Shown one piece after another: positions 20,884 to 53,353 of a stretch of 58,864 bases of DNA. Below the pieces are notes generated by a model. That model saw only the letters and a list, made by a program, of their open reading frames with translations, was not told where the DNA came from and made no database searches. Both the position numbers and the translations under genes were made by a program. This stretch comes from Candidatus Levybacteria bacterium RIFCSPHIGHO2_01_FULL_37_17 (GTDB taxonomy: Bacteria > Patescibacteriota > Microgenomatia > Levybacterales > UBA12049). The DNA lies in assembly GCA_001782035.1 (NCBI GenBank), contig MFNL01000002.1:1-58864 (forward strand), in the 5' to 3' direction. How positions within the stretch are numbered: the stretch's first letter is position 1; each line of letters opens with the position of its first letter.

Positions 20884-20884
20884 G

Positions 20885-21676: not shown

Positions 21677-21683
21677 AATTACT

Positions 21684-25253: not shown

Positions 25254-25255
25254 AA

Positions 25256-28253: not shown

Positions 28254-31154
28254 ATGTTAAAAATTAAGAGCAATAAGCAAGAAAATTTTAAATTTGTAGA
28301 TTCTCAAACTGACTTTCCTGCTTTGGAACGTGAGTGGTTAACAAAGTGGGAAAAAGAAGGACTGGTTTCTAAATACTTGCATAAAAACGAAAAGGCAAAA
28401 GATAAATTTTCATTTTTAGACGGACCAATTACTGCCAACAATCCAATGGGGGTTCATCACGCTTGGGGAAGAACCTATAAAGATTTTTGGCAAAAGTTTT
28501 GGAACATGAGGGGGAAGAAACAACGGTTCCAGAATGGTTTTGATGAGCAAGGGCTATGGGTAGAAGTCGAAGTTGAGAAAGAATTAGGTTTAAAAAGTAA
28601 AAAAGACATAGAAAATTTGGTGACAGGGGATAAGTTTAAAAGTTTAGAGAAATTTATAAACTTATGCAAGGCGCGAGTTGCAAAGTTTTCCAAAATCCAG
28701 ACTGAACAGTCAAAAAAACTAGGTTACTTTATGGACTGGGAGAATTCTTATCATACTTCATCGGATAAGAATAACTATACTATTTGGGAATTTTTAAAGC
28801 TAATCAACGAAAAGGAATGGTTATACAAGGGGCACGATAGCGTCCCATGGTGTCCAAGATGCGGAACAGCAATTTCGCAAATGGAAATACTGTCTGAAGA
28901 ATATAAAGAGCTATCTCATGAATCTGTTTATTTCAAGCTTCCTGTCTTGGATAGAGAAAATGAGTATTTGTTGGTATGGACGACTACGCCATGGACAATA
29001 CCTTCAAATGTTGCTGTTGCTGTGAATAAAGGTGAAGATTATGTTGCTTACAAGATGAATGGAGAAGTTTTATGGATAATGAAAAAAAGACTCAGAGATC
29101 TAGAATCTCAAAAAATTTTAAAAGGAGATACAACTCCTCCAAAAACTTTAAAAGGCAAAGACTTAATAGGTTGGGAATATGAATCGCCGTTTGATGAACT
29201 GCCTTTAGTAAAGGAAGCACTATTGAGCTACCGTCATAGAGTAATAGATGGAGAAGAAATTGTAACTGATGTAGAAGGGACAGGCCTTTTACACGTAGCC
29301 CCCGGAGCTGGAGAAGAAGATTTTAAATTGGGAAAAAAGAATAAAATTCCAGTAATCTCCTCAATTGAGGAGGACGCATCTTACCTTCCAGCAATGGGAG
29401 AGCTTGCAGGTAAAAATGCCAAAGTTCATCCGGAGTTAGTAATCAATTATTTGAAAAACAAAGAGGCAGGAAAATTTATTTTGACTACACAAATGTACGT
29501 GCATAGATATCCAACCTGTTGGAGATGTAGGACTGAGCTAGTATGGCGTGTGGTTGATGAGTGGTATATAGCAATGGATAAAAAGGACGATAGCGGAAAA
29601 ACATACAGAGAACAAATGGTTGCGGTGGCTAAAAAAATTAAATGGATGCCAGATTGGGGTATTGAAAGAGAGCTGGATTGGCTAAAAAATATGCAAGACT
29701 GGTTAATATCTAAAAAAAGATATTGGGGGCTTGCTTTACCCATATTTGAGTGTAAAGATTGTGGAAATTTTGAAGTCATAGGCGGAAAAGATGAATTGAA
29801 GAAGACAGCAGTGGAGGGATTTGATAAATTTGATGGTCATTCTCCACATAGGCCATGGATAGATCAAGTAAAAATAAAATGTCCAAAATGTGGCGGAATT
29901 GTTTCAAGGATTCAAGATGTTGGCAATCCATGGCTAGATGCTGGAATAGTACCTTTTTCAACCTTGACCTCCGATTGGTTTCCTGCTGATTTTATTACTG
30001 AGTCTTTTCCTGGGCAATTTAAAAATTGGTTCTACTCTTTAATAGCAATGGCCACGGTTCTTAAAAATGAACCCTCTTTTAAAAGAGTTTTAGGCTTTGC
30101 GTCAGTGAGGGATGAAAAAGGAGAAGAAATGCATAAAAGTAAGGGTAATGCGATCGAGTTTAATGAAGCAGCAGACAAGATTGGTGTCGATGTCATGAGG
30201 TGGATGTATTTGCGTCAAGATCCGGAAGTTAATTTAAATTTCGGCTACCATGTAACTGATGAAGTCAGGCGATATTTCCACTTGAGGCTTTGGAATGTTT
30301 ATTCTTTTTTTATTACCTATGCAAATCTTTTTAACTTCAAACCCGCAAAAAAAGAATTGAATATCGAAAATATTTTGGATAAATGGATCATTTCAAGGCT
30401 AAACGGCTCTATCTCAAGCGTTACTGGTTTTATAGAATCTTATCATGCGGATAAAGCGACGCTCGAGATTGAGAGCTTTATAATTAATGATTTATCAAAT
30501 TGGTATGTAAGAAGAAGCAGGGATAGGGTTGCCATTTATAGTGAGAACAATAGCGATAGAGACGCTTGCTTATTGACCTTGTGGTATGTATTGAGCGAAT
30601 ACGCTAAGGTTATTGCTCCTTTTATTCCATTCATCTCCGAAGATATGTATGTAAATTTAACGAATGAAGATTCAGTGCACCTGGTTGATTTTCCAATTTT
30701 TGATAAAAAATTAATAAACCCAAGACTAGAAGAAGAGATGCAAGCAGCAAGAAAACTTGCAGAAGTAGTCCATGCTCTTAGAAAAACAAGGGAAGTTAAA
30801 GTTAGAATCCCAATTCGCCAAGCAAAATATAGCGGACCGTTGGAATTATCCAAAGACATACTGAAGGTTGTAAAAGATGAGACTAATATTTATGAACTTT
30901 TGTATGATAAAAAAATCTCAGAGTACAGCATTGATGCAAGAACAAATGATGAAAATCTGGATTTAAATTTTGGGCTAGCTAGAGATATCGTTAGGAAGAT
31001 TCAAGAGCAAAGAAAAGTGCTTAAAACAAGACCCGATCATAAGATAAATGTTACTCTCCCCTTTTGGCCAAAAGAATACGAAGCATTTATAAAGAAAAGA
31101 GCTCAAGTTAGTCAGTTATCAGAAGGAAAAGAGTTTTCAATCTCAAATGAATAA
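28254..31154 (+). CDS. ileS: Isoleucine--tRNA ligase
   Basis: HIGH-like 'NPMGVHHAWGRT', 'WCPRCGTAIS', 'TTTPWTIPSNVAVAV' and KMSKS-like 'MHKSKGN'. Start set at ATG 28254, just after the FKBP stop codon, rather than 28227. Confidence 0.8.
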   Translation: MLKIKSNKQENFKFVDSQTDFPALEREWLTKWEKEGLVSKYLHKNEKAKDKFSFLDGPITANNPMGVHHAWGRTYKDFWQKFWNMRGKKQRFQNGFDEQGLWVEVEVEKELGLKSKKDIENLVTGDKFKSLEKFINLCKARVAKFSKIQTEQSKKLGYFMDWENSYHTSSDKNNYTIWEFLKLINEKEWLYKGHDSVPWCPRCGTAISQMEILSEEYKELSHESVYFKLPVLDRENEYLLVWTTTPWTIPSNVAVAVNKGEDYVAYKMNGEVLWIMKKRLRDLESQKILKGDTTPPKTLKGKDLIGWEYESPFDELPLVKEALLSYRHRVIDGEEIVTDVEGTGLLHVAPGAGEEDFKLGKKNKIPVISSIEEDASYLPAMGELAGKNAKVHPELVINYLKNKEAGKFILTTQMYVHRYPTCWRCRTELVWRVVDEWYIAMDKKDDSGKTYREQMVAVAKKIKWMPDWGIERELDWLKNMQDWLISKKRYWGLALPIFECKDCGNFEVIGGKDELKKTAVEGFDKFDGHSPHRPWIDQVKIKCPKCGGIVSRIQDVGNPWLDAGIVPFSTLTSDWFPADFITESFPGQFKNWFYSLIAMATVLKNEPSFKRVLGFASVRDEKGEEMHKSKGNAIEFNEAADKIGVDVMRWMYLRQDPEVNLNFGYHVTDEVRRYFHLRLWNVYSFFITYANLFNFKPAKKELNIENILDKWIISRLNGSISSVTGFIESYHADKATLEIESFIINDLSNWYVRRSRDRVAIYSENNSDRDACLLTLWYVLSEYAKVIAPFIPFISEDMYVNLTNEDSVHLVDFPIFDKKLINPRLEEEMQAARKLAEVVHALRKTREVKVRIPIRQAKYSGPLELSKDILKVVKDETNIYELLYDKKISEYSIDARTNDENLDLNFGLARDIVRKIQEQRKVLKTRPDHKINVTLPFWPKEYEAFIKKRAQVSQLSEGKEFSISNE

Positions 31155-32229
31155 AATTGGTCTACTGGATTTTGACTTCGGATTGATTATCCCTATCATT
31201 ATTTTATCATTTTTAAGTTTAGTCACTCTTTACTCTTTAAATCCGCTTTTCTTCCAAGGCCAGTTTGTTCTTTTAATCGTATCAGTTTTTGCTTTTTTGT
31301 TTTTTTCTCAAACAAACGTAAATATTCTAAAACTTTATTCAAAACAAATTTATATTATTTCCCTTCTTATTCTGACTGCTGTATTGCTTATTGGAATTGA
31401 ATCTAGAGGTGCGGTAAGATGGATTGAATTCTTGGGTTTTCGTATTCAATTTTCCGAAATCATAAAACCGTTTCTTGCAGTTAGTTTTGCTGCATATCTT
31501 TCAAATCTTAAGGTTTTTTCAATTAAAGAATTTGTAAAAATCTTAATTCTTCTTTCACCCATATTTTTACTTATTAATTTTCAACCTGATTTGGGAAATG
31601 CCTTAATTTATGGATTTGTATTAATCCTGACCCTTTTGTATATTGGGTTTCCTTTTAGATTCTTTTTATCAATGTTTATATTTTCCGTTATTGCCTTTCC
31701 TTTTTTATTTGCATTTCTACATGATTATCAAAAACAAAGAATATTTACCTTCTTAAATCCAGCGTCGGATCCCTTGGGAAATTCTTACAACGTTATTCAG
31801 TCTACCATAGCCGTTGGCTCGGGTATGATTTTTGGCAAAGGAATTGGGCTGGGCACCCAGTCGGGATTAAAGTTTCTGCCTGAAAGACAAACAGATTTTA
31901 TTTTTGCGACTGTTTCGGAACAACTAGGATTTACAGGCGTTGCTATTCTGCTTATTAGCTTTGGATATATTTTATATAAAATTCTAAGCTATATCTTATC
32001 ATCGGAAGATCATTTTCAAAGAATTTTTCTTTCTATTTCTTTTTTTATTATTCTTGTTCAACTGTTTCTCAATATTGGGATGAATATTGGGATTATGCCA
32101 ATTGTCGGAGTGACCCTTCCATTTGTATCTTATGGCGGAAGCTCGTTACTTTCTAATTTTATATTTCTAGGCCTTATTGCTTCAATTGCCAAGGGATACA
32201 AAAACAAGGAAATTCTTTCAATAAGATAA
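31147..32229 (+). CDS. rodA: SEDS-family protein RodA/FtsW paralog
   Basis: 'QFSEIIKP', 'QPDLGN', 'PERQTDFIFA' and 'TLPFVSYGGSSL'. Overlaps ileS by 8 nt. Confidence 0.75.
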   Translation: MNKIGLLDFDFGLIIPIIILSFLSLVTLYSLNPLFFQGQFVLLIVSVFAFLFFSQTNVNILKLYSKQIYIISLLILTAVLLIGIESRGAVRWIEFLGFRIQFSEIIKPFLAVSFAAYLSNLKVFSIKEFVKILILLSPIFLLINFQPDLGNALIYGFVLILTLLYIGFPFRFFLSMFIFSVIAFPFLFAFLHDYQKQRIFTFLNPASDPLGNSYNVIQSTIAVGSGMIFGKGIGLGTQSGLKFLPERQTDFIFATVSEQLGFTGVAILLISFGYILYKILSYILSSEDHFQRIFLSISFFIILVQLFLNIGMNIGIMPIVGVTLPFVSYGGSSLLSNFIFLGLIASIAKGYKNKEILSIR

Positions 32230-35501: not shown

Positions 35502-36380
35502 ATGAAAGATAAATGTCCGGTATGTAGTTTACAAAAAACAATCCAACTCTATCCTGCAGACGTTGATGTTAAAAAGTTATCATTTACATATGTGAAAACT
35601 CCAAATTCGGGAAAAACCTTTCGTTCGGTGAAATGCTTAAACTGCACACATGTTTTTTGCTCACCCATACCTAAAAATATATATAAGAATTATGAAGATG
35701 TTGTTGATAGTGAATACTTAAAATATACAAAGTCCATAAGAGAATCGGCTAAAATTATTCTCCCAATTATTAAAAAGCATGTTACAAGCGGATTAATTCT
35801 TGACGTAGGCTGTGCAACTGGAGAATTTTTAAGCATTGCTAAACAATTTGGATACGAAGTGGAGGGTTTAGAGTTATCAAAATGGTCTTCAGAAATTGCA
35901 AGAAAGCGAAAACTTAAAGTTTATAATACACTGCTAAAAGTCCTTGCGAAAAAACATACAAATAAATATGATATTGTAACCTTGTTCGGTGTTATAGAGC
36001 ATTTCCAAGACCCAAGATTAGAAATGAAATCTTTGCAAAAGTTATTAAAACCTGGCGGGTTGCTTGTCGTATGGACAGGAGACGTTGATTCAATTAGCAG
36101 TAAATTGCTGGGCAAAAATTGGTGGTATTGGCAAGGTCAACATATTCAGTATTTTAGTGAAAAAAGTTTAAATCATCTTGCATTCAATTATGGAGTAAGG
36201 CATATACAGTCTAAAATCTATCCTTTTGTTGCATTTTATGGTCTTGTAGAAAACTCGTTAAGCAGGTATAAAATAAGACCTTTAATTATGGCGCTGTTGA
36301 CACCTTTATTTTTATTGAAACCTAGATGGACATTCTATATACCAGGTGAAATGTTATGGTTTGGTGTTAAAAAAACTTAG
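35502..36380 (+). CDS. Class I SAM-dependent methyltransferase with N-terminal Cys4 zinc ribbon
   Basis: 'CPVCS...CLNCTH' ribbon, motif I 'ILDVGCATGEFL', 'FGVIEHFQDP' and 'LKPGGLLVV'. Confidence 0.75.
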   Translation: MKDKCPVCSLQKTIQLYPADVDVKKLSFTYVKTPNSGKTFRSVKCLNCTHVFCSPIPKNIYKNYEDVVDSEYLKYTKSIRESAKIILPIIKKHVTSGLILDVGCATGEFLSIAKQFGYEVEGLELSKWSSEIARKRKLKVYNTLLKVLAKKHTNKYDIVTLFGVIEHFQDPRLEMKSLQKLLKPGGLLVVWTGDVDSISSKLLGKNWWYWQGQHIQYFSEKSLNHLAFNYGVRHIQSKIYPFVAFYGLVENSLSRYKIRPLIMALLTPLFLLKPRWTFYIPGEMLWFGVKKT

Positions 36381-38119
36381 TACTTTTTCATAAAATATTT
36401 AATTAAAAAAATGGTAATTAATATAGACAAAAGAGTAAAGCAGATTTTTTTTAACAAATCATATGTCGGAATATCCTTATATCTAAGTTCGATATAATAA
36501 TTTCCAGTAGGTAGTTTCGCATTTATTATGCCTCTATTTCCTGGGTAAATATCAATTTGCTTTCCATTAGCCGTCATTGTCCACCCGGGAAAATATAATG
36601 TATTTTCTCTAATTACGATGGGCGTTTTTGATTGTATATTATAGGAATGCATGATTGAAGTTCTTTCAACTTCTTTAACCATCGCAGCTCCTTCGATGAT
36701 TTCTAGGTGGGTTTTGGGTGGTTCAGAAAACCAAAAGTTATTGATATCTGCCCACTTATTATTTAAAAAATACGCAGTTTTTCCTTCTGTTAGGGTGCTT
36801 TTCCCTAGGTTTTGTATTAAAGTATTGTCGGAGATCTCAGGTATTACTCTTCTATGTCCCCAGTTTAATATCGTATATCCAATAGTTAATAGAATAACTA
36901 AAAGTATAATTATTTTATTTTTAGTTTGGTTTTTAAGGTTTAAAACAAAATAAGCGGCAACGATTGAGGTACAAAAAGCGACTATTACCAGTAATCTTCC
37001 AAACGGTAAAAGCATCCAAAACAGCGGGAAAGGCTTCCAAATGAAAGTTGATATTGGATGCATAATAAATAATATAGAAAAAAATATAATTAACCAAAAA
37101 ATTACACCATTTTTGAGAGTTCTTTTTAATTTTTTCGTAAAGAGAGAAACTGTCATTATTGATATTATTGCTACCTGTGTATATCCAATAATTTGAGCGA
37201 GTTCTCCGTTTGGACCTTGAAAAAGAAATCCAAGTCTCCAGGGAGAAAAAAATAGATACTTAAATTCATAAAATATGGGCTCAGCTGAAGAAATGGTGTA
37301 CATAAAAGGAGAATAAATCAAAAAAGATGACCATACATAAGCGGATGACAATACTCCTAAAACTAAACTGAAAATAACTGAAACGCTATGTTTATACTTT
37401 TTACTTTCTAGTCCTAAGAATATTGCGTAAAAAATTAATAAAATTGAGTAACATATTGCGATTAAAGGGTGAGCCATAACAAGTAATATTATCAAAATAC
37501 TATTTAGGATTAAGAAGTAAGACTTGTTGGTTCTAAAATACTTATGTATAGACAAAAAAACCAGAGGGGCAATTAAAAATACTGTTGATTCGCCTAAAGT
37601 TGCCCTAAAATGAACATCAATTAAATGATAAGGGTTAAAAACATAAAATATTGCTGCAATAAACGCTGCGAGCTTGTTTGAGGTAATTTCTCTAATTGCA
37701 AAATACATTGTTATCGATGATAAGTACAACGTCAGTCCTAAGAATAATTTAGTACTATCTATAAAACTCAGTCCTAAGGTGTGAAAGAAAGATATAACAT
37801 AATATGGTAAAGAATAGTTAAAAATAAATAAGGGATTGCCGTATGAGGAGTTAAGATCTGCTGCCCAAGACGGAATTAGTATTCCCTCTTTTAATGAATT
37901 ATAGAACGATATTATTCTGAAAACGTGAATATTAAAATCACCGCTTTCATAGGTTCCAGCTCGAAAAATGCTTAAAACCGGAAGAAGCGATATTAGCAAA
38001 AGTAAGATAAATAAGTTCACTTTCTTTTTGGGGTATATGTATGCATAAACGAACCAGGACAAGAAAACCACCATGCAACCAACTATATTGACAACGATCA
38101 TTCTATAGGGATCTATCAT
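36377..38119 (-). CDS. Large polytopic membrane protein with C-terminal extracytoplasmic domain (YfhO/GT-C-like, putative glycan transferase or polymerase)
   Basis: 580 aa with more than 10 hydrophobic helices. First loop 'GTYESGDFNIHVFRIISFYNSLKEGILIPSWAADLNSSYGNP'. Soluble ~130-aa domain followed by a terminal TM helix. The family assignment is tentative. Confidence 0.5.
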   Translation of the reverse strand: MIDPYRMIVVNIVGCMVVFLSWFVYAYIYPKKKVNLFILLLLISLLPVLSIFRAGTYESGDFNIHVFRIISFYNSLKEGILIPSWAADLNSSYGNPLFIFNYSLPYYVISFFHTLGLSFIDSTKLFLGLTLYLSSITMYFAIREITSNKLAAFIAAIFYVFNPYHLIDVHFRATLGESTVFLIAPLVFLSIHKYFRTNKSYFLILNSILIILLVMAHPLIAICYSILLIFYAIFLGLESKKYKHSVSVIFSLVLGVLSSAYVWSSFLIYSPFMYTISSAEPIFYEFKYLFFSPWRLGFLFQGPNGELAQIIGYTQVAIISIMTVSLFTKKLKRTLKNGVIFWLIIFFSILFIMHPISTFIWKPFPLFWMLLPFGRLLVIVAFCTSIVAAYFVLNLKNQTKNKIIILLVILLTIGYTILNWGHRRVIPEISDNTLIQNLGKSTLTEGKTAYFLNNKWADINNFWFSEPPKTHLEIIEGAAMVKEVERTSIMHSYNIQSKTPIVIRENTLYFPGWTMTANGKQIDIYPGNRGIINAKLPTGNYYIELRYKDIPTYDLLKKICFTLLSILITIFLIKYFMKKY

Positions 38120-39966
38120 AAATCAATTTTGTAAAGGTAATAGTACGGATATACTAAATAACTAGAAATCAGTGAATAGTTTTTGCAATCATTTATGCTG
38201 AGCTTAGAGCAAAACCATAAAATATCTCCTCCCCGTATCATTAATTTGGTTACTCCTACCTCTCTTAATTTTTCCATAGATTTATTATTACTTTCAAAGA
38301 TACTATTCACGTCCATAAAATTAAAGTCAGCATAATAATACCCATGAAAGTTATACATGGCAACAATGTCGTTCTTCTGAATAAATTTATCAAATTTATA
38401 ATCAAAATCGAAATAGCTTGAATTGTCCCGTGTTAAGACCCTTGATAAATACTTATTTTTATCTGATAGGCCAAATGCGTAGGGTAATACAAAAACAGAT
38501 GAAATAAAATAATATGCAAACGTTATAAATACTAGTAAATATAACGCGTATTTTATTCTAGACACTTGTTGTAGGGCAAAATAAATTCCTAACGAGGCTA
38601 TAAATAATAATAAAACATACACTCCTAACAGATATCTTCCGTATGGATAATTTATAAATAAATATATCAACGAAACGATAAGGGTCATTTGAAAGATTGG
38701 ATAGTTTTTAATTGTTAAGATAGCTTCTTTAATTTTAGAAAATAAAAGTGCTATTCCCAAAAACAAAAAGGGACTATAAACATTTATACTAGAGAGTGGG
38801 TTTAAAAAATTTGTGTTAATGGTAAAATACCTTTGAATGTTATAGGTGTATTTCAATCCATTAAGGGTTTCAAAGGTTTGAAATGCGGGGAAAAAAGGAT
38901 TGCCAGTCGATAAATAAGCCCTAAAAAACCATATTCCAGAAACAAAAATTACTCCGAGTGCGTATATCCCAATAATTTTAAACCTACTTTCAATTTTAGC
39001 ATTCTTAGACAAGAAAATAAAAAACAACGCAATTATAGGAATTAATATGATTGTCCACAACTTTGTCGCAACCATTCCGCCGATAAATAAACCTACTAGA
39101 AATACAGTTTTGTTAGTTAACTTTCTATTTGCAAAAAGTAATAAAATTGAAAGTATAAGTAAAAAGATCCATTGGAAGTCAACATACATTGACGATGTTT
39201 CCCTAATAATTTCAGGAGTCGTTACAAAAACTAACGGTATAAATTTTGCAAAAGCAAAATTTTTTATTTTTGCAAAACTAACGAGCGATAAAATGCATAA
39301 AATATAAAATAAAAAATGAATGTACCTTGCTGTTTCTTTCGACAGTAAAAATATGCCAGGTATATAGTACATCTCTGCGAGCATGGAGCTTCCCGATACA
39401 TGCAGGTCTTCGCTTGGCGGTATCATTATTGTCTGTTCGCGCAAGTAAATTCTTGGAAAATCAACGTGATATTGGTCTTCCCTTGTTTCAGGATTTATTA
39501 AGTTGACTGAAGCTACTAGAACAAAAAGGAAGACACCTATAAATACTAAATTATTTCTCTTAAGTAAAATCATGCAAGATATTAACTGTTTCTTAAACTC
39601 ACCAAGGTTCAGGCACAACTTTTTAAAGGGATATATAGCAATAAATATTATTGTAAAAATATAAAAACATAAAATTGCTGGTTTTAATAAAGAAAAAAAG
39701 CCTAGCAGGGTTATTCCTGTTGAAATCGCAATATAACCCAAAGCAGTTGATACAAGAAAATCAAATTCGATAATTTTTTTAGGATAAAAAACGTCTTTAA
39801 GCCTTTTTCCTAGTAAATAAGAGATGAGAGAAATAAATATTGCATAAAGTAGGTAAGTAGCAAAAATTAATAAGGGCGAAAAATCAACTGGTTCTCTCGT
39901 GTAGTCTGAAATTACATAATCAAACTTTGAAACAAGATTTCTAATAAGGTTGAAGAATAAATGCAT
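38116..39966 (-). CDS. GT-C-like polytopic membrane glycosyltransferase (ArnT/PMT-like)
   Basis: 616 aa and highly hydrophobic, with a loop 'PETREDQYHVDFPRIYL' after the early helices and a soluble C-terminal domain. 4-nt overlap with the downstream gene. Confidence 0.5.
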   Translation of the reverse strand: MHLFFNLIRNLVSKFDYVISDYTREPVDFSPLLIFATYLLYAIFISLISYLLGKRLKDVFYPKKIIEFDFLVSTALGYIAISTGITLLGFFSLLKPAILCFYIFTIIFIAIYPFKKLCLNLGEFKKQLISCMILLKRNNLVFIGVFLFVLVASVNLINPETREDQYHVDFPRIYLREQTIMIPPSEDLHVSGSSMLAEMYYIPGIFLLSKETARYIHFLFYILCILSLVSFAKIKNFAFAKFIPLVFVTTPEIIRETSSMYVDFQWIFLLILSILLLFANRKLTNKTVFLVGLFIGGMVATKLWTIILIPIIALFFIFLSKNAKIESRFKIIGIYALGVIFVSGIWFFRAYLSTGNPFFPAFQTFETLNGLKYTYNIQRYFTINTNFLNPLSSINVYSPFLFLGIALLFSKIKEAILTIKNYPIFQMTLIVSLIYLFINYPYGRYLLGVYVLLLFIASLGIYFALQQVSRIKYALYLLVFITFAYYFISSVFVLPYAFGLSDKNKYLSRVLTRDNSSYFDFDYKFDKFIQKNDIVAMYNFHGYYYADFNFMDVNSIFESNNKSMEKLREVGVTKLMIRGGDILWFCSKLSINDCKNYSLISSYLVYPYYYLYKIDL

Positions 39967-40014: not shown

Positions 40015-42600
40015 ATGGCTCTAATAAAAACCTCTTTAATTTGCACTGTACTAAATGAAGAAGAATCTGTTCAAGAACTTATTGATTCTATTATAAATCA
40101 ATCTGTAATGCCAGATGAAATTATTATTGTTGATGGCGGTAGCACAGATAGTACTACGGAAGTTATAATGGCCAAAATAAAAAATGATTCCAACTTAAAC
40201 CTCAAGCTGTTTATTAAAAAGGGTAATAGATCAATAGGAAGAAATAAAGCAATAGAAGAAAGTTCGGGAGATATTATCCTGTCCACTGATGCGGGTTGTA
40301 TCCTTGAAAAAAACTGGGTAAAAAACATTCTTGAACCATTTAAAAACAAAAAGACGGATATTGTCGCAGGATACTATAAAGGGACAGGTAGGAATTCATT
40401 TGAAAAATCGCTTATACCTTATGTGCTCGTTATGAAGGACAGAGTTGTCTCTAATGATTTTCTACCGGCAACGCGTTCTGTGGCTTTTAAAAAGAGCGTA
40501 TGGAGAAAAGTTGGTGGTTTCGATAAAAATCTTTCTCATAATGAAGATTATGCTTTCGCAAATAAGATAAAGCGTCAAGGTTTTAAAATTTACTTTCAAA
40601 AATCTGCAGTTGTTAACTGGATACCCCCAAGGAGTATATTTAAGGCTTTTAAAATGTTTTTCAGCTTTGCATATGGGGACATTGAAGCACATTTGATAAG
40701 AGATAAGGTGATTTACATTTTTCTAAGATATTCATTTGGAATTTATTTACTTATTTTAGCATTGATTATGAAATCAATTTATTTAACCTCTTTAGTGACT
40801 GTTCTAGGATTAAGCTATGTAGCATGGTCAATAAAAAAAAATTATAAATATGTGAAAAATTATGAGGGTTTTTTATTTTTACCCTTAATTCAAATTACAT
40901 CAGATATCGCCGTAGTTTCGGGCTCTATACTTGCCCTGCTCAATAAGGTTTCTATAAAAAAGATTATGGGAAAACTTATCCAGAATAAAGGAATAACAGT
41001 TTTGGTACTAATTTACGCCGGAATAATGGTCTCAATGATTAATTGGGGTATACCAAATATTAGTCATCCATTCAATTATTTTATGGATGAATGGCATCAA
41101 GCGCAATCTATAAGAAATTTATTTACTCAAGGCACGATTAATATAGAGGGATCTGCTAATGGCTCAATTTTTCATTTTTTCCTATCAGGACTTTTTTTAG
41201 TACCGTTTTATTTGTTGGGAATAATTAATCCTTTTGCAATTGAGTCCTCAGTTTCTAATCTTGAACTTCAAGGAAACCTGTTTGTAGTTTTAAGATTGAA
41301 TACTTTGCTTTATGGATCAATGTCAATAATAATTTTTTATTATATTTGTAAGAAATATTTTAATCTTAACCCTTTGATATCAAGTATGGTGTTTATTTTT
41401 AATCCCGCCTGGATTATGCTAAGCAACTATTTTAAGTATGATATCGCATTAATGTTTTGGACACTGTTAAGCTTTCTTATTATGTTGAAATATATAAATA
41501 ACCCAACCTTTATAAGTTTATTATTGGCAGCTATTATATCGTCGATTTCATTATCTGTTAAATTACAACCCTTTTTCTTCCCAATACTTTTAATTATAAT
41601 ATTTTTAAAATTTACTCCCGATTTCAAGCAAAAGTTAAAATGGATTTTTATTTCGCTTTTTGTTTATGCAATTGTTTTTATTTCTTTGGGAATACCCGAT
41701 ATCCTTCTTGCAAAAGGCGATTTATCCGAATATTTGTCTTCAGTCCTTATAAGAACGCCTGAGCATAATGTTTCAAATATAATAATCAACGAAAATATAT
41801 GGCAATATCTTGTTACAAATATTTACCCAACTTTATTTGGTATTGTTTTATTCTTTGTGAGTGCTCTATTTATATTTATTATCTTAATGAGAATCGTCGT
41901 TGTAAGTATCATGCGAAAGAGCAAGGAACAGTTTTTTACGAAAGAGGAGCTTTTTTTGATTATAGCATTCGGTTTATTCACATTAAGTCTTATTCCCTTA
42001 AGACTCGATGCAACTGGCAATAGGGCATTAATTCTTCTACCATTCTTTGCAATATTTTTTGCTCTTTTTTGGCAAATTGCATTCAGGCTTATCAATAAAA
42101 AAATCGTTTTATTACTGCTTGTTGTTTTTTTATTGATACAAACCATTCAGACAATTGTATGGATTGAGCAAAAAATATTGGAAGATCCTCGAAAACTATC
42201 TTCTGAGTGGATTTTGAACAATGTTCCAAAAAATTCTACAATCGGGGTAGAAAATATTCCCATTTACCAGATGCTGCCCGATATAGTTTTAAGAGAGTAT
42301 TATCTAAAGAAACAAAATTTAAATTTTAAAACTTATTATAATTATAAAGTTATAAACAAAAATGAAAATATGTATCCTAAATTTGTCGTTTTAACAAATG
42401 GAAGTATAGTGGGTAAGTATTTTAGAAAATCAGAGAAAACCCAGATTAAAAAAACGTTAAAAAAGAAAGGGTATAGAGAAGTTGCAGTTTTTTCTCCCAA
42501 TTTTTCAAACTTAAAATTCTTCACGAGCGATATTCAATATTATCAGTCCGCAATTATTCAGGTACCTATTAATTTAGCTATCTATGAAAAAAATGATTAA
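40015..42600 (+). CDS. Fusion protein: N-terminal GT2 (GT-A) glycosyltransferase + C-terminal GT-C (ArnT/PMT-like) membrane glycosyltransferase
   Basis: Residues ~1-230: 'SLICTVLNEEESVQELIDSIINQS', 'IIVDGGSTDST' and 'DAGC' (GT2, DxD-like). These are followed by more than 10 TM helices with the loop 'FMDEWHQAQSIRNLF' (GT-C first-loop acidic motif) and a soluble C-terminal tail. Uninterrupted 861-codon ORF. Confidence 0.7.
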   Translation: MALIKTSLICTVLNEEESVQELIDSIINQSVMPDEIIIVDGGSTDSTTEVIMAKIKNDSNLNLKLFIKKGNRSIGRNKAIEESSGDIILSTDAGCILEKNWVKNILEPFKNKKTDIVAGYYKGTGRNSFEKSLIPYVLVMKDRVVSNDFLPATRSVAFKKSVWRKVGGFDKNLSHNEDYAFANKIKRQGFKIYFQKSAVVNWIPPRSIFKAFKMFFSFAYGDIEAHLIRDKVIYIFLRYSFGIYLLILALIMKSIYLTSLVTVLGLSYVAWSIKKNYKYVKNYEGFLFLPLIQITSDIAVVSGSILALLNKVSIKKIMGKLIQNKGITVLVLIYAGIMVSMINWGIPNISHPFNYFMDEWHQAQSIRNLFTQGTINIEGSANGSIFHFFLSGLFLVPFYLLGIINPFAIESSVSNLELQGNLFVVLRLNTLLYGSMSIIIFYYICKKYFNLNPLISSMVFIFNPAWIMLSNYFKYDIALMFWTLLSFLIMLKYINNPTFISLLLAAIISSISLSVKLQPFFFPILLIIIFLKFTPDFKQKLKWIFISLFVYAIVFISLGIPDILLAKGDLSEYLSSVLIRTPEHNVSNIIINENIWQYLVTNIYPTLFGIVLFFVSALFIFIILMRIVVVSIMRKSKEQFFTKEELFLIIAFGLFTLSLIPLRLDATGNRALILLPFFAIFFALFWQIAFRLINKKIVLLLLVVFLLIQTIQTIVWIEQKILEDPRKLSSEWILNNVPKNSTIGVENIPIYQMLPDIVLREYYLKKQNLNFKTYYNYKVINKNENMYPKFVVLTNGSIVGKYFRKSEKTQIKKTLKKKGYREVAVFSPNFSNLKFFTSDIQYYQSAIIQVPINLAIYEKND

Positions 42601-43294
42601 TTTTGCAGTAATTATTCCTTCTTATAACGAACATAAATCTCTCAATGTATTGCTGAAGAAAATAAGAATAAAATACAACAATCCGGTTTACGTAATTGAT
42701 GATTCTTTGTCTCCGCAGAAAGAACAAATAAAAGCACTACAAAAGAAGTTTTCAAAAGTTTATGTCACATCAAGAAATTTTAAAAAAGGAAGAGGAAGCG
42801 CAGTGCTGGTAGGATTTAAAAAGGCAGTTAAAAACTTAAATAATGATTATTTATTAGAAATGGATTCTGATCTTGCTCATGATCCATACGAAATACAAAG
42901 GTTCTTAAGCAAGGCTGATGAGGGTAGTTACGACTTAATTATTGGTTCGAGGTATTTTCCTGGAGGTAAAATTAAGAATATAGAGAAAGAAAGGACAATA
43001 TTAAGCAGGCTTATAAATTATTTTTTAAAAATTTGGTTAGGTATTAATGTGACTGATTTCACAAGTGGTTTCAGATTATATAGTAGAAAAGCAATAGAAA
43101 TCGTTTTAAGCAATAAAATACAATCTAAAGGCTTTATAACGTTGTCTGAAACTTTATATATTATTCATAGAAATAAATTATCAATAGGAGAGGTTCCAAT
43201 AACCTGGAATTACAGGAGGTTTGGAAAATCAAATGTCAACAGCAGGGAGCTGCTTATTTCCCTCTACTTTGTGCTTAAGATGAAGCTTTTTTAA
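42584..43294 (+). CDS. Polyprenol-phosphate sugar synthase (Dpm1/Ppm1/ArnC-like GT2)
   Basis: 'FAVIIPSYNEHKSL', 'RGSAVLVGF', 'MDSDLAHDP' and 'GSRYFPGG' match the dolichyl/polyprenyl-phosphate mannose synthase pattern. Confidence 0.75.
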   Translation: MKKMINFAVIIPSYNEHKSLNVLLKKIRIKYNNPVYVIDDSLSPQKEQIKALQKKFSKVYVTSRNFKKGRGSAVLVGFKKAVKNLNNDYLLEMDSDLAHDPYEIQRFLSKADEGSYDLIIGSRYFPGGKIKNIEKERTILSRLINYFLKIWLGINVTDFTSGFRLYSRKAIEIVLSNKIQSKGFITLSETLYIIHRNKLSIGEVPITWNYRRFGKSNVNSRELLISLYFVLKMKLF

Positions 43295-44501
43295 CAATTT
43301 GCATTTTAGGCAGAGGAAAAATAAATTTTCCCCCGCTACTTAGATATTGCTTTTCTCTATGTAGAAACTCTTTTTTAAAAAACCAAGGCAAGACAAGCAT
43401 ATATTCGGGCTTATCGACCCTTGCTCGCTCTTCTGAAATAATAGGAATTCCTACAGAAGCAATTTTTTTACCCCACTTTTCAGGATTTCTTTCAACTGCG
43501 AAGGGAACAAGGTTCTTATCAATTCCAAAAAATTGTAATAGCGTATTGCCTCTAGTTGATGCACCATAAAGATAAACCTTTTCTCCTCTACTTGTTATTT
43601 TATTAATAAGTTTTAAAGTTTCTACTTTATTATTAATTATCTCTCTTGCAAAATTTATGTACACCTTTTTATTATCTAAGCCAATTTTTTTTTCATTTCT
43701 CTTCATTCTTAATACCTTTTCTGAAATTTTTCTTTTACCCATCTTTGAAATGTAAGTTCTAAAACTTCCACCGTTTAGAGCTCTAATATCGGCGTCAAAT
43801 ACTTCAAGACTATGTCTTTTTAGAAGATTTGTTAGAGAAAGTAAAGAATAATATTCGAGATGTTCGTGTACAATATTATCAAATGCATTTTTTTTTAACA
43901 TCTCTGCTAAATAATTTTGCTGGATTACAATGATTGATTCTTCTTTCATAATTTTCTTAACATCTTTTATAAACTGGTTTGGATCGTCCATATCATAAAA
44001 ACAAGATATTATAGTTATAATATCTGCCTTTCTATCTCCAATTTTTTTAAAATATGATTTGAAATTGAAATAGTCATTAATTACAATATTGGAATATTTA
44101 TTTGCTTCCCTCGCATATTTCCTAATTGGCTCGACAGACACTCTAAAAACACTTTTAGGGTAATAGCTCAGTAGAGTGCCATCATTTGCGCCAATATCCA
44201 CCGCAACAAGCTTTTTTTTATTCTTTACCTTATTTAATGCCTGATTAACAATATGTTTTAGCTCGTCTCTCATCGTCTGGTTAATGCCCGATTTGTAACC
44301 ATATCGTTCGGTATAAAGGAACTTAGATGGAGTCGTGTAATCAAGTTGGACTAGTTTGCAATTTTTACAAATTATAATATTTAAAGGGAATGCCTTAGGT
44401 TTTTTATTCGTCTTCACAAAATCTGATAAATATTGCTTTCCTAAGTAAAGTATTGGGGATAAGCTTTTTGAACCGCATGATCTGCATTTTTTAAGTCTCA
44501 T
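43275..44501 (-). CDS. NDP-hexose C-methyltransferase-like SAM methyltransferase (Zn-ribbon + MTase + C-terminal domain)
   Basis: 'CRSCGS...CKNCKLVQL' N-terminal zinc-binding domain, motif I 'VAVDIGANDGTLL' and a ~150-aa C-terminal domain with 'GASTRGNTLL'. This is the architecture of TylC3-type sugar C-methyltransferases. Confidence 0.65.
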   Translation of the reverse strand: MRLKKCRSCGSKSLSPILYLGKQYLSDFVKTNKKPKAFPLNIIICKNCKLVQLDYTTPSKFLYTERYGYKSGINQTMRDELKHIVNQALNKVKNKKKLVAVDIGANDGTLLSYYPKSVFRVSVEPIRKYAREANKYSNIVINDYFNFKSYFKKIGDRKADIITIISCFYDMDDPNQFIKDVKKIMKEESIIVIQQNYLAEMLKKNAFDNIVHEHLEYYSLLSLTNLLKRHSLEVFDADIRALNGGSFRTYISKMGKRKISEKVLRMKRNEKKIGLDNKKVYINFAREIINNKVETLKLINKITSRGEKVYLYGASTRGNTLLQFFGIDKNLVPFAVERNPEKWGKKIASVGIPIISEERARVDKPEYMLVLPWFFKKEFLHREKQYLSSGGKFIFPLPKMQIVKKASS

Positions 44502-44571: not shown

Positions 44572-45795
44572 ATGGGATATACCAGAGATACTCTGAGGGG
44601 CGTTTCATGGATGTCTGCACTAAGACTCGCAACTCGAGCCGCCTCGTTTCTAAAAATTGCAGTATTAGCAAGATTTCTTTCTCCCGCCCAATTTGGATTA
44701 TTCGGTGTTGCTTCGATAGCTTTATCTTTATTAGAAGTTCTTACTCAAACAGGTATAAATATATTCCTTGTTCAATCCAAAAAAGAAATTGAAGAATATG
44801 TAGATTCTGCATGGGTAGTTTCTATTTTAAGAGGTGCTTTTATTGGACTGCTTATTATTTTATTATCTCCATTCCTTGCAGAGTTTTTTAATACACCTGA
44901 GGCTTTAAATATATTACTTCTTATTAGTATAGTGCCATTTATTAAAGGCTTTATAAATCCTTCAGAAATAAAATTTCAAAAAAATTTAAATTTTGCATAT
45001 GAGTTTTGGTTTAGGTCTATTATTTTTGTAGTTGATGCGGCTATAGCAATAATTTTTTCTGTTTTAACCCAATCGGTTTATGGTTTGGTCCTTGGTCTTA
45101 TTGCCGGGGCAGTGCTTGAAGTTGTTTTATCCTTTGCAATCATTAAACCTTGGCCAAGGTTTAATGTTAATTTTAGTCACGTAAGAGAGATTTTGCATAG
45201 AGGAAAATGGGTTACCGCTTATTCAGTTTTTGATTATTTTGGAGAGAATTTGGACGATATATTAGTTGGTAGAGTTTTAGGAACTCCCGTACTTGGAATT
45301 TACCAAGTAGCTTATAGAATATCAACTATGCCCATATCGGAAATAGCAAATGTCGTCAGTCCAGTAGTTTTCCCTGTTTATGCAAGAATTGTTGAAGACA
45401 ATAAAAGATTAATCCGTGCGTTTCTAAAAACTTCATTTTTAACCGCTTTGGCAGCAGTTGTAATGGGTACTATAATTTTTGTCTATCCTAGAGAAATAGT
45501 TCTAATAGTCTTAGGTGAGCAATGGTTAAGCGCCATACCAGTATTACAGCTGTTATCAATTTATGGTGTATTACGAGCAATCGTATCTCCATCTTATGCT
45601 GTTTTTTTGGCAAAAGGAGAACAGAAACATGTAACTTTGGTGATTCTTGTTCGGCTCTTGGCTCTCTCGCTTTTCATTTATCCTTTTATAAAAACTTTTG
45701 GCTTAGTAGGTGCGGGATATGCTGCAATTTTTTCAATAATAGCAGAAATACCGTTCGTTATTTATTTCCTACTATTTACTTTCAAAAATAAATAA
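44572..45795 (+). CDS. Wzx-type oligosaccharide flippase (MOP superfamily)
   Basis: 'LRGVSWMSALRLATRAASFLKIAVLARFLSPAQFGLFGVA' is a typical polysaccharide-biosynthesis-protein N-terminus. About 12 TM helices. Confidence 0.75.
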   Translation: MGYTRDTLRGVSWMSALRLATRAASFLKIAVLARFLSPAQFGLFGVASIALSLLEVLTQTGINIFLVQSKKEIEEYVDSAWVVSILRGAFIGLLIILLSPFLAEFFNTPEALNILLLISIVPFIKGFINPSEIKFQKNLNFAYEFWFRSIIFVVDAAIAIIFSVLTQSVYGLVLGLIAGAVLEVVLSFAIIKPWPRFNVNFSHVREILHRGKWVTAYSVFDYFGENLDDILVGRVLGTPVLGIYQVAYRISTMPISEIANVVSPVVFPVYARIVEDNKRLIRAFLKTSFLTALAAVVMGTIIFVYPREIVLIVLGEQWLSAIPVLQLLSIYGVLRAIVSPSYAVFLAKGEQKHVTLVILVRLLALSLFIYPFIKTFGLVGAGYAAIFSIIAEIPFVIYFLLFTFKNK

Positions 45796-49933: not shown

Positions 49934-51493
49934 ATGTTTACTGTTGCGTTTTTAACAGGTATATACAGTTATATAATATTTATTTTAGGAATTTTAAATA
50001 AGCTTTATAGTGGCCATATCTTACTTTTCACATTTGCATATTTAGTTTTGTGCGTCGTTTTGTTTAGAATAAGAATCAAGGATTTTTATTTAAAGATAAA
50101 GAAAAGAACAATTCGTCTACATAACTTACCTAAATTATTTTTCTCTTTAATAATAATTCAGTGTTTAATAAATTTTATCGGCGCTTTGGGCCCGGAGCTT
50201 TCTTTCGATGCGCTTTGGTATCATCTAACATTACCTAAACTGTTTTTTGAGCAACATTCAATATTTTTTATTCAGGGAAACCTACTTTATTATTCATTGT
50301 TTCCAAAACTTGGTGAAATGCTTTATATTGCTTCTCTTTCGATAAACGGAGAAATATTAGCAAAGATTTTACATTACACTTTCGGCATATTGACGCTACT
50401 TGTTATTTATAAAATATCTAAAAAATTTCTTAATAACGTATTCTCAACACTTGCATGTTTAATATTTTCATCAAACCTAGTTTTTGCTTGGCAGTCTACC
50501 ACAGCCTATATTGATCTATTTAGAACTTTTTTTGAAGTATTAGCATTATGGGCTTTTTTAAATAAAGATACTGTTAAATCTGCGGTTTCCTTAGGTTTTG
50601 CAATTTCGACGAAGCTTTCGGCGATTGGATCTATTCCAATTTTTGCAGTACTGTATCTAATTTTTGATAAAAAAAACTTCAGATCCATAATTTTATTCAC
50701 ATTGCTTGCACTAATAATTCCTTCCCCTTGGTTTATATTTTCTTTTATAAACTCCGGCAGACTGTTTTATCCACTTTTCACAGATTTGTACCCAGATCAA
50801 CTTATACTCAACGTTAGTCCCCTCGATATCGTTGTTGATTTTTTCAAATTATTTTTATACTCTCCCGATCCTATTTCTCCGCTTTATTTAATATTATTGC
50901 CCGTAGTTTTTATTTTATATAAAAAGCTGAATAGACACTTAAAAATTCTTGCAGTTTACAGTTTATTAAGCTTAATAATCTGGTATTTTATACCAAGAAC
51001 CGGCGGTGGAAGATTTATCCTCCCTTATTTGCCTGCATTTTCTATTCTCTCTGCAGGAGTAATTTTTTACCTAGACATGAGAATGCGAAAATTTTTATTA
51101 ATAATTGCTGTCTTAATTGCTTTAACAACTATTTTTTATAGAGGAGCTACGAACGCGAAATTTGTGCCCGTGATAATAGGAAGTGAAACAAAAGAGCATT
51201 TTCTCTCCGTCAGGCTCAATTTTAATTTTGGAGACTTCTATGATATAGATAGCTATTTTGCTAAAAACTTAACAAGCTCTGACAGAGTTCTCTTATATGG
51301 CTTTCACAATTTGTATTATGTTGAATTCCCTTTTATTGATTCATCGTGGATAAAAAGGGGAGATAGGTTTAATTACATTGCCACTCAAAACATACAACTT
51401 CCAGACAGATTTAAAGATTGGATGCTTATTTACTATAATAAAGTAACAGGTGTAAAACTTTTCACTCATAATAAAACTGTATGGATATACTAA
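49934..51493 (+). CDS. GT-C (ArnT/PMT_2-like) membrane glycosyltransferase
   Basis: 519 aa, polytopic, with a first loop 'GPELSFDALWYHLTLPKLF' and a soluble C-terminal domain. An in-frame TAG at 49922 fixes ATG 49934 as the first possible start. Confidence 0.6.
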   Translation: MFTVAFLTGIYSYIIFILGILNKLYSGHILLFTFAYLVLCVVLFRIRIKDFYLKIKKRTIRLHNLPKLFFSLIIIQCLINFIGALGPELSFDALWYHLTLPKLFFEQHSIFFIQGNLLYYSLFPKLGEMLYIASLSINGEILAKILHYTFGILTLLVIYKISKKFLNNVFSTLACLIFSSNLVFAWQSTTAYIDLFRTFFEVLALWAFLNKDTVKSAVSLGFAISTKLSAIGSIPIFAVLYLIFDKKNFRSIILFTLLALIIPSPWFIFSFINSGRLFYPLFTDLYPDQLILNVSPLDIVVDFFKLFLYSPDPISPLYLILLPVVFILYKKLNRHLKILAVYSLLSLIIWYFIPRTGGGRFILPYLPAFSILSAGVIFYLDMRMRKFLLIIAVLIALTTIFYRGATNAKFVPVIIGSETKEHFLSVRLNFNFGDFYDIDSYFAKNLTSSDRVLLYGFHNLYYVEFPFIDSSWIKRGDRFNYIATQNIQLPDRFKDWMLIYYNKVTGVKLFTHNKTVWIY

Positions 51494-52659: not shown

Positions 52660-53353
52660 CGTGTATTATTTTTTCAGCCCTGTTTCCTGCTAGGTCAACT
52701 GAAGCTACTTTAATTTCATTATCTCCATCATGCAGCGTAAGAAAGTAAGAGAAGGAGTTAGACTCGTCTATAATAGCGTAAAATCCGCTTACCATGACTG
52801 TTGTGTTGGCATCAGTTGTGCCCGTAACCTCTATAACTTTATCTTCTTTTTTAAAACTGTCTCCATCGTTTGGATTTGTTATCTCAAGTGAGGGAGGAGA
52901 TTTTTTAAAAATTATAACTAATGGAGAAGAGAAATCACTTTTTTTATTATCTATAACTTGCCTTGCTGTAAAAGTATTTTCTTCTTCATTTAATACTACT
53001 TCGAATTCAAATTTTCCTTCAGAGTCTGTATCTTGCTGATCTATCTTCTTGGCATTTTGATAAAGTTCGACATTTGAGTCCTCTTCTGCCTTTCCCGCGA
53101 CCTTTATTTTTGCGCTATTGGTTGCTGAGACCGAAGCATTAAAAATAGGATAGGGAATAAACTGTAGCTTGTTTTGGCCTTCAGATAGAGGTGTTCCTTT
53201 ATTACCAGCTATAAAAAGACTTAAGTTAATTAAAGCAGGAAGTCCGAATTTAAACAGAAGGAAGAGTAAAACAATTATTCCCAAAATACTTAGAAACAAG
53301 GTTTTCTTCTGTTTTCTTTCGGTATATCTAGATAATCTAGTTTTTCTCGTCAT
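52643..53353 (-). CDS. Membrane-anchored secreted protein with Ig-like repeats
   Basis: Basic N-terminus plus a TM helix (LFLSILGIIVLLFLLF), followed by two beta-rich modules ('KVAGKAEEDSNVELY...GKFEFEV' and 'EVTGTTDANTTVMVSG...GDNEIKVASVDLAGN'). Confidence 0.5.
   Translation of the reverse strand: MTRKTRLSRYTERKQKKTLFLSILGIIVLLFLLFKFGLPALINLSLFIAGNKGTPLSEGQNKLQFIPYPIFNASVSATNSAKIKVAGKAEEDSNVELYQNAKKIDQQDTDSEGKFEFEVVLNEEENTFTARQVIDNKKSDFSSPLVIIFKKSPPSLEITNPNDGDSFKKEDKVIEVTGTTDANTTVMVSGFYAIIDESNSFSYFLTLHDGDNEIKVASVDLAGNRAEKIIHVNYSP

Follow-up and report, generated by a model that had tools for sequence, protein, structure and literature searches.

A Predicted Single-Chain Fusion of a Membrane GT2 Resembling PcManGT with a GT-C Module of the PMT/ArnT Kind in Levybacteria

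Fusion A and Its Proposed Role

Contig MFNL01000002.1 of Candidatus Levybacteria bacterium RIFCSPHIGHO2_01_FULL_37_17 (assembly GCA_001782035.1), analyzed over 58,864 nucleotides (hereafter, the window), contains an open reading frame (ORF) for a protein of 861 amino acids (aa), designated fusion A, in which a glycosyltransferase of the GT2 type is followed by a GT-C module (Table 1). Structural models showed a predicted N-terminal membrane GT2 resembling PcManGT, with an intact nucleotide-sugar site and a candidate catalytic base, and a predicted C-terminal GT-C module of the PMT/ArnT kind in the same chain. Fusion A is a new, uncharacterized variant of known enzyme kinds and not a new kind of system. 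Its best overall explanation, in which moderate confidence is placed, is that of a bifunctional membrane glycosyltransferase that would act on both sides of the membrane and whose gene forms part of a conserved cell-envelope glycan locus of Levybacteria. At the cytoplasmic face, the GT2 module would transfer a sugar from a nucleoside diphosphate (NDP)-sugar onto a membrane-embedded acceptor, which would most likely be a glycan intermediate, linked to polyprenyl (pyro)phosphate, of the Wzx-dependent pathway for which the same operon codes, and not bare polyprenyl phosphate. A polyprenyl-phosphate sugar would be made by a separate DPM1-class synthase, the gene of which overlaps the fusion A stop, flipping would be performed by Wzx or another flippase, and the GT-C module would use that polyprenyl-phosphate sugar at the outer face. 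Fusion A would thus tether the inner-face and outer-face steps of one glycoconjugate pathway without being a self-contained relay that makes and uses its own donor.

Continuity and Distribution of the Reading Frame

In the ORF list of the window, the reading frame of fusion A runs from its ATG through 861 codons without interruption, as the earlier note on this DNA had stated; at about 30% GC around the ORF and a length of 2.6 kb, such a frame is open far beyond chance. The motifs quoted in that note were all present in the protein, namely, NEEESV (aa 14–19), DGGSTDST (aa 40–47), DAGC (aa 92–95), and FMDEWHQ (aa 356–362). The identical 861-aa product was encoded on 19 contigs in several assemblies made independently (NCBI GCA_001782495.1, ENA ERZ27254756, ERZ4903137, and others), and on all of them it had the same neighbors, with a 616-aa gene upstream and a 233/236-aa gene downstream. 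In a comparative survey restricted to one genome per species, which yielded 76 related loci (labeled L001 and so on), the GT2::GT-C ORF was continuous in 55. Conservation was assessed in an alignment of 53 homologues, on which the full-length AlphaFold2 (AF2) model was also built; the latter had a predicted local distance difference test (pLDDT) score of 90.4 and a predicted TM-score (pTM) of 0.86, and no segment, the junction included, fell below a pLDDT of 50. An assembly error or frameshift joining two genes, for which no supporting evidence was found, is contradicted by the identical ORF in independent assemblies, by its continuity in 55 related genomes, and by the confident model across the junction; this explanation is effectively refuted, and its probability is regarded as negligible.

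A database search returned 433 homologues of fusion A, and nearly all of the best 120 of these had a length of 840–890 aa, an identity of 43–61%, and a coverage of 96–100%. More than 100 full-length homologues (44–61% identity) came from Levybacteria/Patescibacteria, to which the named entries among the best 120 mostly belonged. The remark that no characterized enzyme of this architecture was known to its author stood in one respect, since a literature search of incomplete coverage found no publication on GT2::GT-C or GtrB::GT-C fusions and none relevant on GT-C enzymes of the candidate phyla radiation (CPR); it needs qualification in another, because such proteins are common in public CPR genomes, where they are annotated merely as "glycosyltransferase".

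Fold, Catalytic Residues, and Class of the GT2 Module

The Pfam model Glycos_transf_2 (PF00535) matched fusion A at aa 7–131 (E = 9.5e-22, 78.1 bits against a cut-off of 23.3), and the AF2 model had a pLDDT of about 90 over aa 1–205. When the full-length model was compared with the Protein Data Bank (PDB) using Foldseek, the best match was PcManGT of Pyrobaculum calidifontis (E = 1.6e-10, 340 columns against a chain of 345 residues, TM-score 0.63 normalized to PcManGT), followed by WrtF, TarP, RmlT, and the hyaluronan synthase of a Chlorella virus. The 50 matches listed were all glycosyltransferases, mostly GT-A enzymes of the GT2 type, with a probability of 1.00, and all of them were on the N-terminal half of the protein. 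The presence of a complete GT2 domain, claimed earlier from motifs, was thus confirmed by both the profile and the predicted GT-A fold.

Residues D40, D92, and E177-D178 were invariant across the 53 homologues. Throughout the family, the DXD motif is replaced by D92-(A/S)-G94 with a single Asp. The E177-D178 pair is the candidate catalytic base: it aligns with the DD pair of PcManGT, and the sequence alignment of the two proteins extends to residue 206, through the acceptor half, with D178 opposite the Asp pair around Asp223. In PcManGT, Asp223 is the general base (PMC12595478).

In the window protein, position 217 is occupied by Ser (R217S, codon AGC, window positions 40663–40665) instead of the Arg that 94% of 52 homologues carry. 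The site lies in the interface helix equivalent to the QxxRW element (MFFRFAxGD) and may be relevant to acceptor binding. Together with D-A-G in place of DXD, this substitution could point to a GT2 module that is catalytically degenerate in this organism, with no role left other than to scaffold or regulate the GT-C module from the cytoplasm. Such degeneration is considered highly improbable, as D40, D92, E177-D178, R229, R238, and D297 are all retained, the D-(A/S)-G state is family-wide and no lesion of the window copy, and the identical protein on 19 contigs was independently assembled from several samples. It was also observed that R205 is displaced by one position in the window protein (WIPPRS versus WIPRKN).

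The earlier note had likened the GT2 domain to the donor synthases GtrB, ArnC, and Dpm1, and this likeness was contradicted by hidden Markov model (HMM) searches, the PDB profile, and motifs alike. Among the NCBIfam models, the highest-scoring were EpsD (5.5e-18), TIGR04283 (MftF-like; 1.2e-16), PgaC (6.4e-16), and AglG (1.2e-10), the last of these being a GT2 that glycosylates glucosyl-dolichyl phosphate, whereas the synthase models ArnC (aa 4–94) and AglJ each gave 8e-5. The profile of the 53 sequences matched TarS, TarP, and chondroitin synthase in the PDB at about 1e-11, whereas the matches to GtrB (1.2e-4, aa 3–94) and ArnC (1.6e-3) were confined to the nucleotide-binding N-terminal ~95–130 residues; the matches that spanned the acceptor half were GT2 enzymes with hydroxyl acceptors (TarP, PcManGT, and chondroitin synthase). 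The class motifs of polyprenyl-phosphate-sugar synthases are G(S/T)RY..GG and D-x-(T/S)-SGF-(R/K), both of which align with PfDPMS, while ArnC is without them at these positions. Neither GSRY nor D-x-TSGF-R was found in the fused GT2 or in any of the 53 aligned family members (53/53). Because the matches to GtrB and ArnC were weak and N-terminal only and the class motifs were absent throughout, the fused GT2, as judged from its sequence, falls outside the DPM1/GtrB/ArnC class of polyprenyl-phosphate-sugar synthases.

The GT-C Module

The Pfam model PMT (PF02366) matched fusion A above its cut-off at aa 399–562 (E = 1e-8, 35.5 bits against 22.7), covering only positions 58–230 of the 245 in the profile, whereas PMT_2 remained sub-threshold (19.1 against 26.1). 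In Pfam searches, no MIR or PMT_4TMC match was found in fusion A, which means that the full architecture of GT39 PMT enzymes is not present, and the C-terminal alpha/beta domain had no Pfam match. In sequence searches, neither the protein itself nor the 53-sequence profile retrieved a GT-C enzyme from the PDB at E ≤ 1; the GT-C identity could therefore be tested by fold only, for which purpose aa 312–861 were modeled separately (pLDDT 91.7, pTM 0.92). The best 42 fold matches of this model in the PDB were all GT-C enzymes, with ALG12 first (1.9e-7; TM-score relative to the target (TMt), 0.59), ArnT at 6e-5, and Pmt4 at 4.7e-4 (TMt 0.55); further matches were ALG9, STT3, AglB, Pmt1-Pmt2, PglB, ALG3, Emb, AftB, ALG6, and PimE.

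The invariant residues of the module were M357-D358-E359-W360-H361, K474-Y475-D476, and N669-R670. The D358-E359 pair, invariant in 53/53 sequences and situated 18 residues after the first transmembrane helix (TM1), is presumably equivalent to the DE motif of yeast Pmt1. The proposal of a GT-C module with an acidic first loop was thus borne out, and the C-terminal part of the protein, for which a GT-C relationship had been proposed over ~600 aa, was found to be GT-C over 550 aa. From the modeled fold, it is inferred that this module would use a sugar donor linked to a lipid phosphate.

Membrane Helices and Topology

According to the secondary structure of the AF2 model, the GT-A domain is followed by an amphipathic interface helix (aa 208–224) with the degenerate QxxRW-like sequence MFF[R>S]FAYGD, by three hydrophobic helices (aa 230–252, 255–280, and 285–311), and then by a K-rich amphipathic helix (aa 314–323) and TM1 of the GT-C module (aa 325–340). 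The invariant residues of the membrane domain were R229, R238, Y268, W271, K275, N276, P290, Q293, and D297. Stand-alone GT2 proteins of the same type (hereafter, A-type; 288–388 aa) end directly after the third helix and keep every invariant helix residue. The helices previously described as a linker therefore form the membrane domain of the GT2 module, in the manner of PcManGT, and are no connector specific to the fusion. Being retained where no GT-C is attached, they are likewise no translocation device peculiar to the fusion.

Stand-alone GT-C orthologues start with MKSK-TM1-WG(I/V)PN..HPF.YHMDEWHQ, that is, with an N-terminal Lys cluster before TM1. From this start, TM1 is predicted to have its N-terminus inside, with the DE loop outside, and fusion A would consequently need an even number of membrane crossings before residue 325. 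Family-wide counts revealed K/R clusters on both flanks of the helix at aa 285–311, which suggests, from sequence, that both of its ends may be cytoplasmic and that the domain may consist of a TM hairpin and one interfacial or re-entrant helix. In this connection, the A-type GT2 that stands alone in an Amesbacteria genome (L061:10996-11865, minus strand) was observed to have a 16-residue deletion, which takes away the greater part of either the first or the second membrane helix; the deletion is relevant to whether these two helices form a genuine TM hairpin or are re-entrant.

The Adjacent DPM1-Class Synthase and Fusion B

The gene downstream of fusion A shares 17 nt with the 3′ end of the fusion A ORF, where its start codon is located, and encodes a stand-alone 236-aa protein without any hydrophobic segment in its hydropathy profile. 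This protein matched the NCBIfam models AglJ (3.5e-17), ArnC (2.3e-16), and PpgS (7e-13), and its only PDB matches, over the full length (aa 6–228), were PfDPMS (1e-19) and ArnC (2e-11). The motifs GSRY..GG and D-x-x-SGF (DFTSGFR) are aligned with those of PfDPMS; the class motifs missing from the fused GT2 are thus present here, as well as in the fusion B proteins described below. An orthologue (identity 46–63%) starts from −60 to +150 nt relative to the fusion A stop in 19 of the 55 fused loci, and a distant DPM1-like gene is located within 7 kb in 17 further ones. The 236-aa protein is likely the maker of the GT-C donor. With a DPM1/ArnC-class synthase next door, donor synthesis need not reside in fusion A, and the earlier idea that donor synthesis and donor use are physically coupled within this protein is not upheld, an enzyme of the synthase class being encoded by the overlapping next gene.

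In relatives, a DPM1-like domain of this kind forms the N-terminal part of a protein of about 750 aa with PMT/PMT_2 at the C-terminus. This protein, fusion B, was found in loci L001, L002, L003, L004, and L054 (L001 and L009 are one record), for example, at L001:10564-12822 (752 aa) and L002:10621-12885 (754 aa), and the N-terminal domains of these two were 63% and 52% identical, respectively, to the 236-aa synthase of the window. The family includes at least 45 full-length homologues, some of which are named "dolichol-phosphate mannosyltransferase" by JGI, and the PMT profile starts at aa 302, soon after the synthase domain. The synthase::GT-C architecture proposed for fusion A therefore exists, although in fusion B, a neighboring gene family. 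Using tblastn, the GT-C half of the B type was not found in the window; thus, this domain was either lost here or gained in the relatives. The 519-aa PMT_2 protein of the window (49934-51493) was considered as a relocated half of fusion B and was ruled out at BLAST sensitivity (tblastn).

Split Forms and Other GT-C Fusions of the Lineage

A stand-alone orthologue of the GT-C module was found in 16 loci, and a separate A-type GT2 was encoded in the same cluster in five loci (L060, L061, L062, L066, and L068), in two of which (L061 and L068) it was located immediately upstream of Wzx. An exhaustive search of representative proteins with the GT-C half gave 401 of them, among which fused (~850 aa) and stand-alone (~500–570 aa) forms were both well represented. 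Representatives of 590–640 aa, which might have been regarded as helices plus GT-C without GT2, are most likely truncated gene calls and were not used, because P0130 has precisely the internal Met214 as its first residue, and the start of P0121 aligns with R229.

A second fusion in the window, fusion C, combines a rhamnosyltransferase-like GT2 with PMT_2 and is conserved in related loci. Hydropathy places one hydrophobic segment between its GT2 domain and the first long loop, and additional helices ahead of TM1 are apparently lacking; the layouts of fusions B and C are consistent with the same orientation as in fusion A. In addition, the Levybacteria/Patescibacteria protein P0368 (891 aa) carries an N-terminal GT4 (GT-B fold) joined to a PMT_2 GT-C, P0378 (979 aa) a DPM1-like GT2 joined to a YfhO-type GT-C, and P0381 (429 aa) a DPM1-like GT2 joined to a GtrA-type membrane domain. 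In this lineage, the N-terminal partners of GT-C domains are of several kinds, namely, PcManGT-like GT2, DPM1-class synthase, rhamnosyltransferase-like GT2, and GT4. The GT4 and rhamnosyltransferase-like GT2 domains had no match to the polyprenyl-phosphate-sugar synthase models tested, and we know of no such synthase among GT4 or rhamnosyltransferase-like GT2 enzymes. Fusion to a GT-C is therefore not sufficient to imply donor synthesis.

Weighing of the Proposed Mechanism

Several observations weigh against the explanation preferred here, namely, a GT2 acting on a lipid-linked glycan intermediate and a GT-C supplied by the separate synthase. These are the Ser at position 217 in the interface helix; the presence of three helices between the GT2 domain and TM1, while an even number of crossings is required; the lack of a DPM1-like gene within 7 kb in 19 of the 55 fused loci, several of these contigs being short; and the occurrence of at least five GT-C-type proteins in the locus, which means that the adjacent synthase may serve others. 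Moreover, PcManGT is reportedly dolichyl-phosphate-dependent, so that direct action of a GT2 of this kind on polyprenyl phosphate is conceivable.

The last point belongs to the model originally proposed for this protein, in which the GT2 would load a sugar onto polyprenyl phosphate, the helices would help its translocation, and the fused GT-C would use it. The lipid-facing helices of the GT2 indeed carry the invariant polar residues P290, Q293, and D297, the closest structure is PcManGT, about one-third of the fused loci have no DPM1-like gene within 7 kb, the window has no GtrA, and the fusion of a true DPM1-class synthase to GT-C in fusion B indicates that this logic is under selection in the lineage. 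The model is nevertheless regarded as unlikely, because the GT2 stands outside the DPM1/GtrB/ArnC class by all three approaches, a class-typical synthase overlaps the 3′ end of fusion A, the helices are present in stand-alone GT2 enzymes, the diversity of GT-C orthologues that stand alone is no smaller than that of the fused ones, and GT-C fusions to GT4 and rhamnosyltransferase-like GT2 occur without a donor-synthase domain. A more specific version, in which the polar stripe of P290, Q293, and D297 and the GT-C bundle would form one intramembrane path and, in a single polypeptide, a flippase-independent relay handing a lipid-linked sugar, which the GT2 would make or extend at the inner face, to the active site of the GT-C, is put forward as a speculation of low probability; were it true, the DPM1::GT-C fusion B would be a second and simpler instance of such a relay.

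Organization of the Locus

The coordinates of the features discussed are given in Table 1. The conserved core of the 76 loci comprises the 580-aa and 616-aa genes, which are divergent from fusion A and conserved upstream of it in most loci, fusion A itself, often the DPM1-like gene and the minus-strand C-methyltransferase gene, then Wzx, GT4, and fusion C. The L002 orthologue of the 616-aa protein had a weak match to DUF8201, and both upstream proteins may be further enzymes of the GT-C type. The window also encodes several GT4 enzymes and two more PMT_2 proteins.

Table 1. Features of the window and the basis of their assignment (coordinates are positions in the window).
Feature	Coordinates	Strand	Basis
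Fusion A, whole GT2::GT-C ORF, 861 aa, ATG start	40015..42600	+	ORF list
GT-A catalytic domain of GT2 module, aa 1–205	40015..40629	+	Pfam PF00535, invariant columns, Foldseek
Membrane domain of GT2 module	40636..40947	+	AF2 secondary structure, Foldseek, stand-alone orthologues
GT-C transmembrane module, aa 314–736	40954..42222	+	Pfam PMT, AF2, Foldseek
First extracytoplasmic loop, aa 341–384	41035..41166	+	Invariant M357-D358-E359-W360-H361 at start of loop helix
C-terminal alpha/beta domain, aa 742–861, presumed extracytoplasmic	42238..42597	+	AF2, invariant G744, I748-P749, Y751, P755
DPM1/ArnC-class polyprenyl-phosphate sugar synthase, stand-alone, 236 aa	42584..43294	+	NCBIfam, PDB matches, motifs
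NDP-sugar C-methyltransferase-like gene, between synthase and Wzx	43275..44501	-	Methyltransf_14 3e-46, syntenic in relatives
Wzx-type (MOP) flippase	44572..45795	+	Pfam Polysacc_synt_3 3.1e-68
Fusion C, rhamnosyltransferase-like GT2 + PMT_2, 733 aa	46904..49105	+	PF00535 1.4e-20; PMT_2 28.4 bits (above cut-off); TIGR01556 4e-18
Wzy_C/O-antigen-ligase-like protein	51481-52659		Encoded in the window
616-aa polytopic membrane protein	38116-39966	-	Hydropathy, synteny; no Pfam or NCBIfam match
580-aa PTPS_related/YfhO-like polytopic protein	36377-38119	-	Pfam, hydropathy, synteny
Bac_transf phosphoglycosyl transferase, small	6832-7488		Cluster at window start

The absence of a GtrA-like small flippase near fusion A, remarked upon in the earlier note, was confirmed for the window, where no ORF of 80–220 aa with at least three hydrophobic segments was found except for an unrelated one (277-915); the locus is not devoid of a flippase gene, however, as a Wzx-type gene is conserved in the operon and follows fusion A or a stand-alone A-type GT2 in most related loci. 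This arrangement also speaks for a different mechanism, in which an oligosaccharide linked to polyprenyl pyrophosphate would receive a sugar, perhaps its last, from the GT2, would then be flipped by Wzx, and would be transferred or polymerized en bloc by the GT-C in the manner of an oligosaccharyltransferase or polymerase. The Bac_transf gene, several GT4 genes, and a Wzy_C-like gene in the window are in agreement with such a pathway, and the leading GT-C fold matches include STT3, AglB, and PglB. Pfam, however, gives PMT/PMT_2 and not STT3, the loop motif is a PMT-like Asp-Glu, enzymes using lipid-phosphate monosaccharide donors (ALG12, ALG9, ArnT, and Pmt4) match the fold equally well or better, and the adjacent DPM1-class synthase is translationally coupled. 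En-bloc transfer is considered distinctly unlikely, and the use of a polyprenyl-phosphate sugar from the neighboring synthase is preferred.

A number of further observations were made on the window and the related records. A separate glycan cluster at positions 1-9504 comprises a PMT_2 protein (916-2355), three GT4 genes, a nucleotidyltransferase, Bac_transf, and a DUF4012 protein (7528-9504). The glycosylation locus is preceded by a dcw-type cell-wall cluster (12406-26536) with MraW, a PBP transpeptidase, three Mur ligases, a MurA-like protein of the EPSP_synthase fold, MraY, FtsW/RodA, and MurG, and a second FtsW/RodA paralogue (31147-32229). The order IleRS-FtsW-L21-L27-ParB-signal peptidase is common to the window and L001. 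Just after the Wzy_C-like gene, the minus strand (52643-53353) encodes a 236-aa protein with Glucodextran_B and bacterial Ig-like domains, which may be a surface protein and a candidate target of glycosylation. Many records of metagenome-assembled genomes titled "uncultured Gammaproteobacteria" or "Pseudomonadales" (L003, L004, L008, L011, L014, and others) contain loci syntenic with those of Levybacteria, and these titles look like wrong taxonomic labels.

Comparison with Known Systems and Significance

PcManGT (PDB 6YV7-6YV9, "minimal cellulose-synthase-like" fold) resembles the GT2 module of fusion A in combining a GT-A domain, an interface helix, and membrane helices, and differs from it as a stand-alone archaeal enzyme without GT-C, with D-A-D where the fusion A family has D-A/S-G. 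Its GT-A domain starts at about residue 44, and the stretch before this residue is presumably an N-terminal TM helix. The GT-C module shares with GT39 PMT and ArnT-like GT83/PMT_2 enzymes the Pfam PMT match above cut-off, the Asp-Glu of loop 1, and fold matches to Pmt4, Pmt1-Pmt2, and ArnT, whereas, unlike GT39 PMT, it has the PMT core only, without MIR or PMT_4TMC, and its best fold match is ALG12.

With the three-component systems GtrB/GtrA/GtrC, ArnC/ArnEF/ArnT, CsbB/GtcA/YfhO, and Ppm1/Pmt, the locus has in common a synthase gene beside GT-C genes, and the logic of a three-component relay very probably applies to the locus overall. It differs from them in that the domain fused to GT-C is another kind of GT2, the synthase being a separate protein, and in that a Wzx-type gene is present instead of a small flippase of the GtrA/ArnEF type in the window. 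Fusion B is similar to fusion A in having a cytoplasmic GT2 N-terminal to GT-C and occupies the next position of the same operon in relatives, whereas its GT2 is of the true synthase class and is joined directly to TM1 of the GT-C without extra helices. A precedent for a synthase combined with a polytopic membrane domain is Ppm1 of M. tuberculosis, in which an Lnt-like domain is fused to a polyprenyl-phosphate-mannose synthase, although the membrane partner there is acyltransferase-like and not GT-C. The same pair of Pfam domains as in Ppm1, CN_hydrolase and GT2, was found in the distant matches P0382 and P0384. A further candidate for comparison is AglD, a GT2 of haloarchaea for dolichyl-phosphate sugars that carries a large membrane domain at its C-terminus.

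For most three-component systems, the crossing of the membrane by polyprenyl-phosphate sugars and the coordination of the inner-face and outer-face steps are poorly understood. Since the neighboring gene most likely encodes the donor synthase, the payoff from fusion A is more modest than first proposed; for the question of whether such fusions bypass a dedicated flippase, fusion B of the relatives is the better case. The fusions are compact and confidently modeled targets for cryo-electron microscopy and for the reconstitution of coupling and flipping. In Levybacteria, the natural fusions of GT-C to several cytoplasmic glycosyltransferases, together with the matching split forms, constitute Rosetta-stone pairs for the assignment of partners, and they help to assign such partners in an otherwise unannotated envelope pathway of the CPR.

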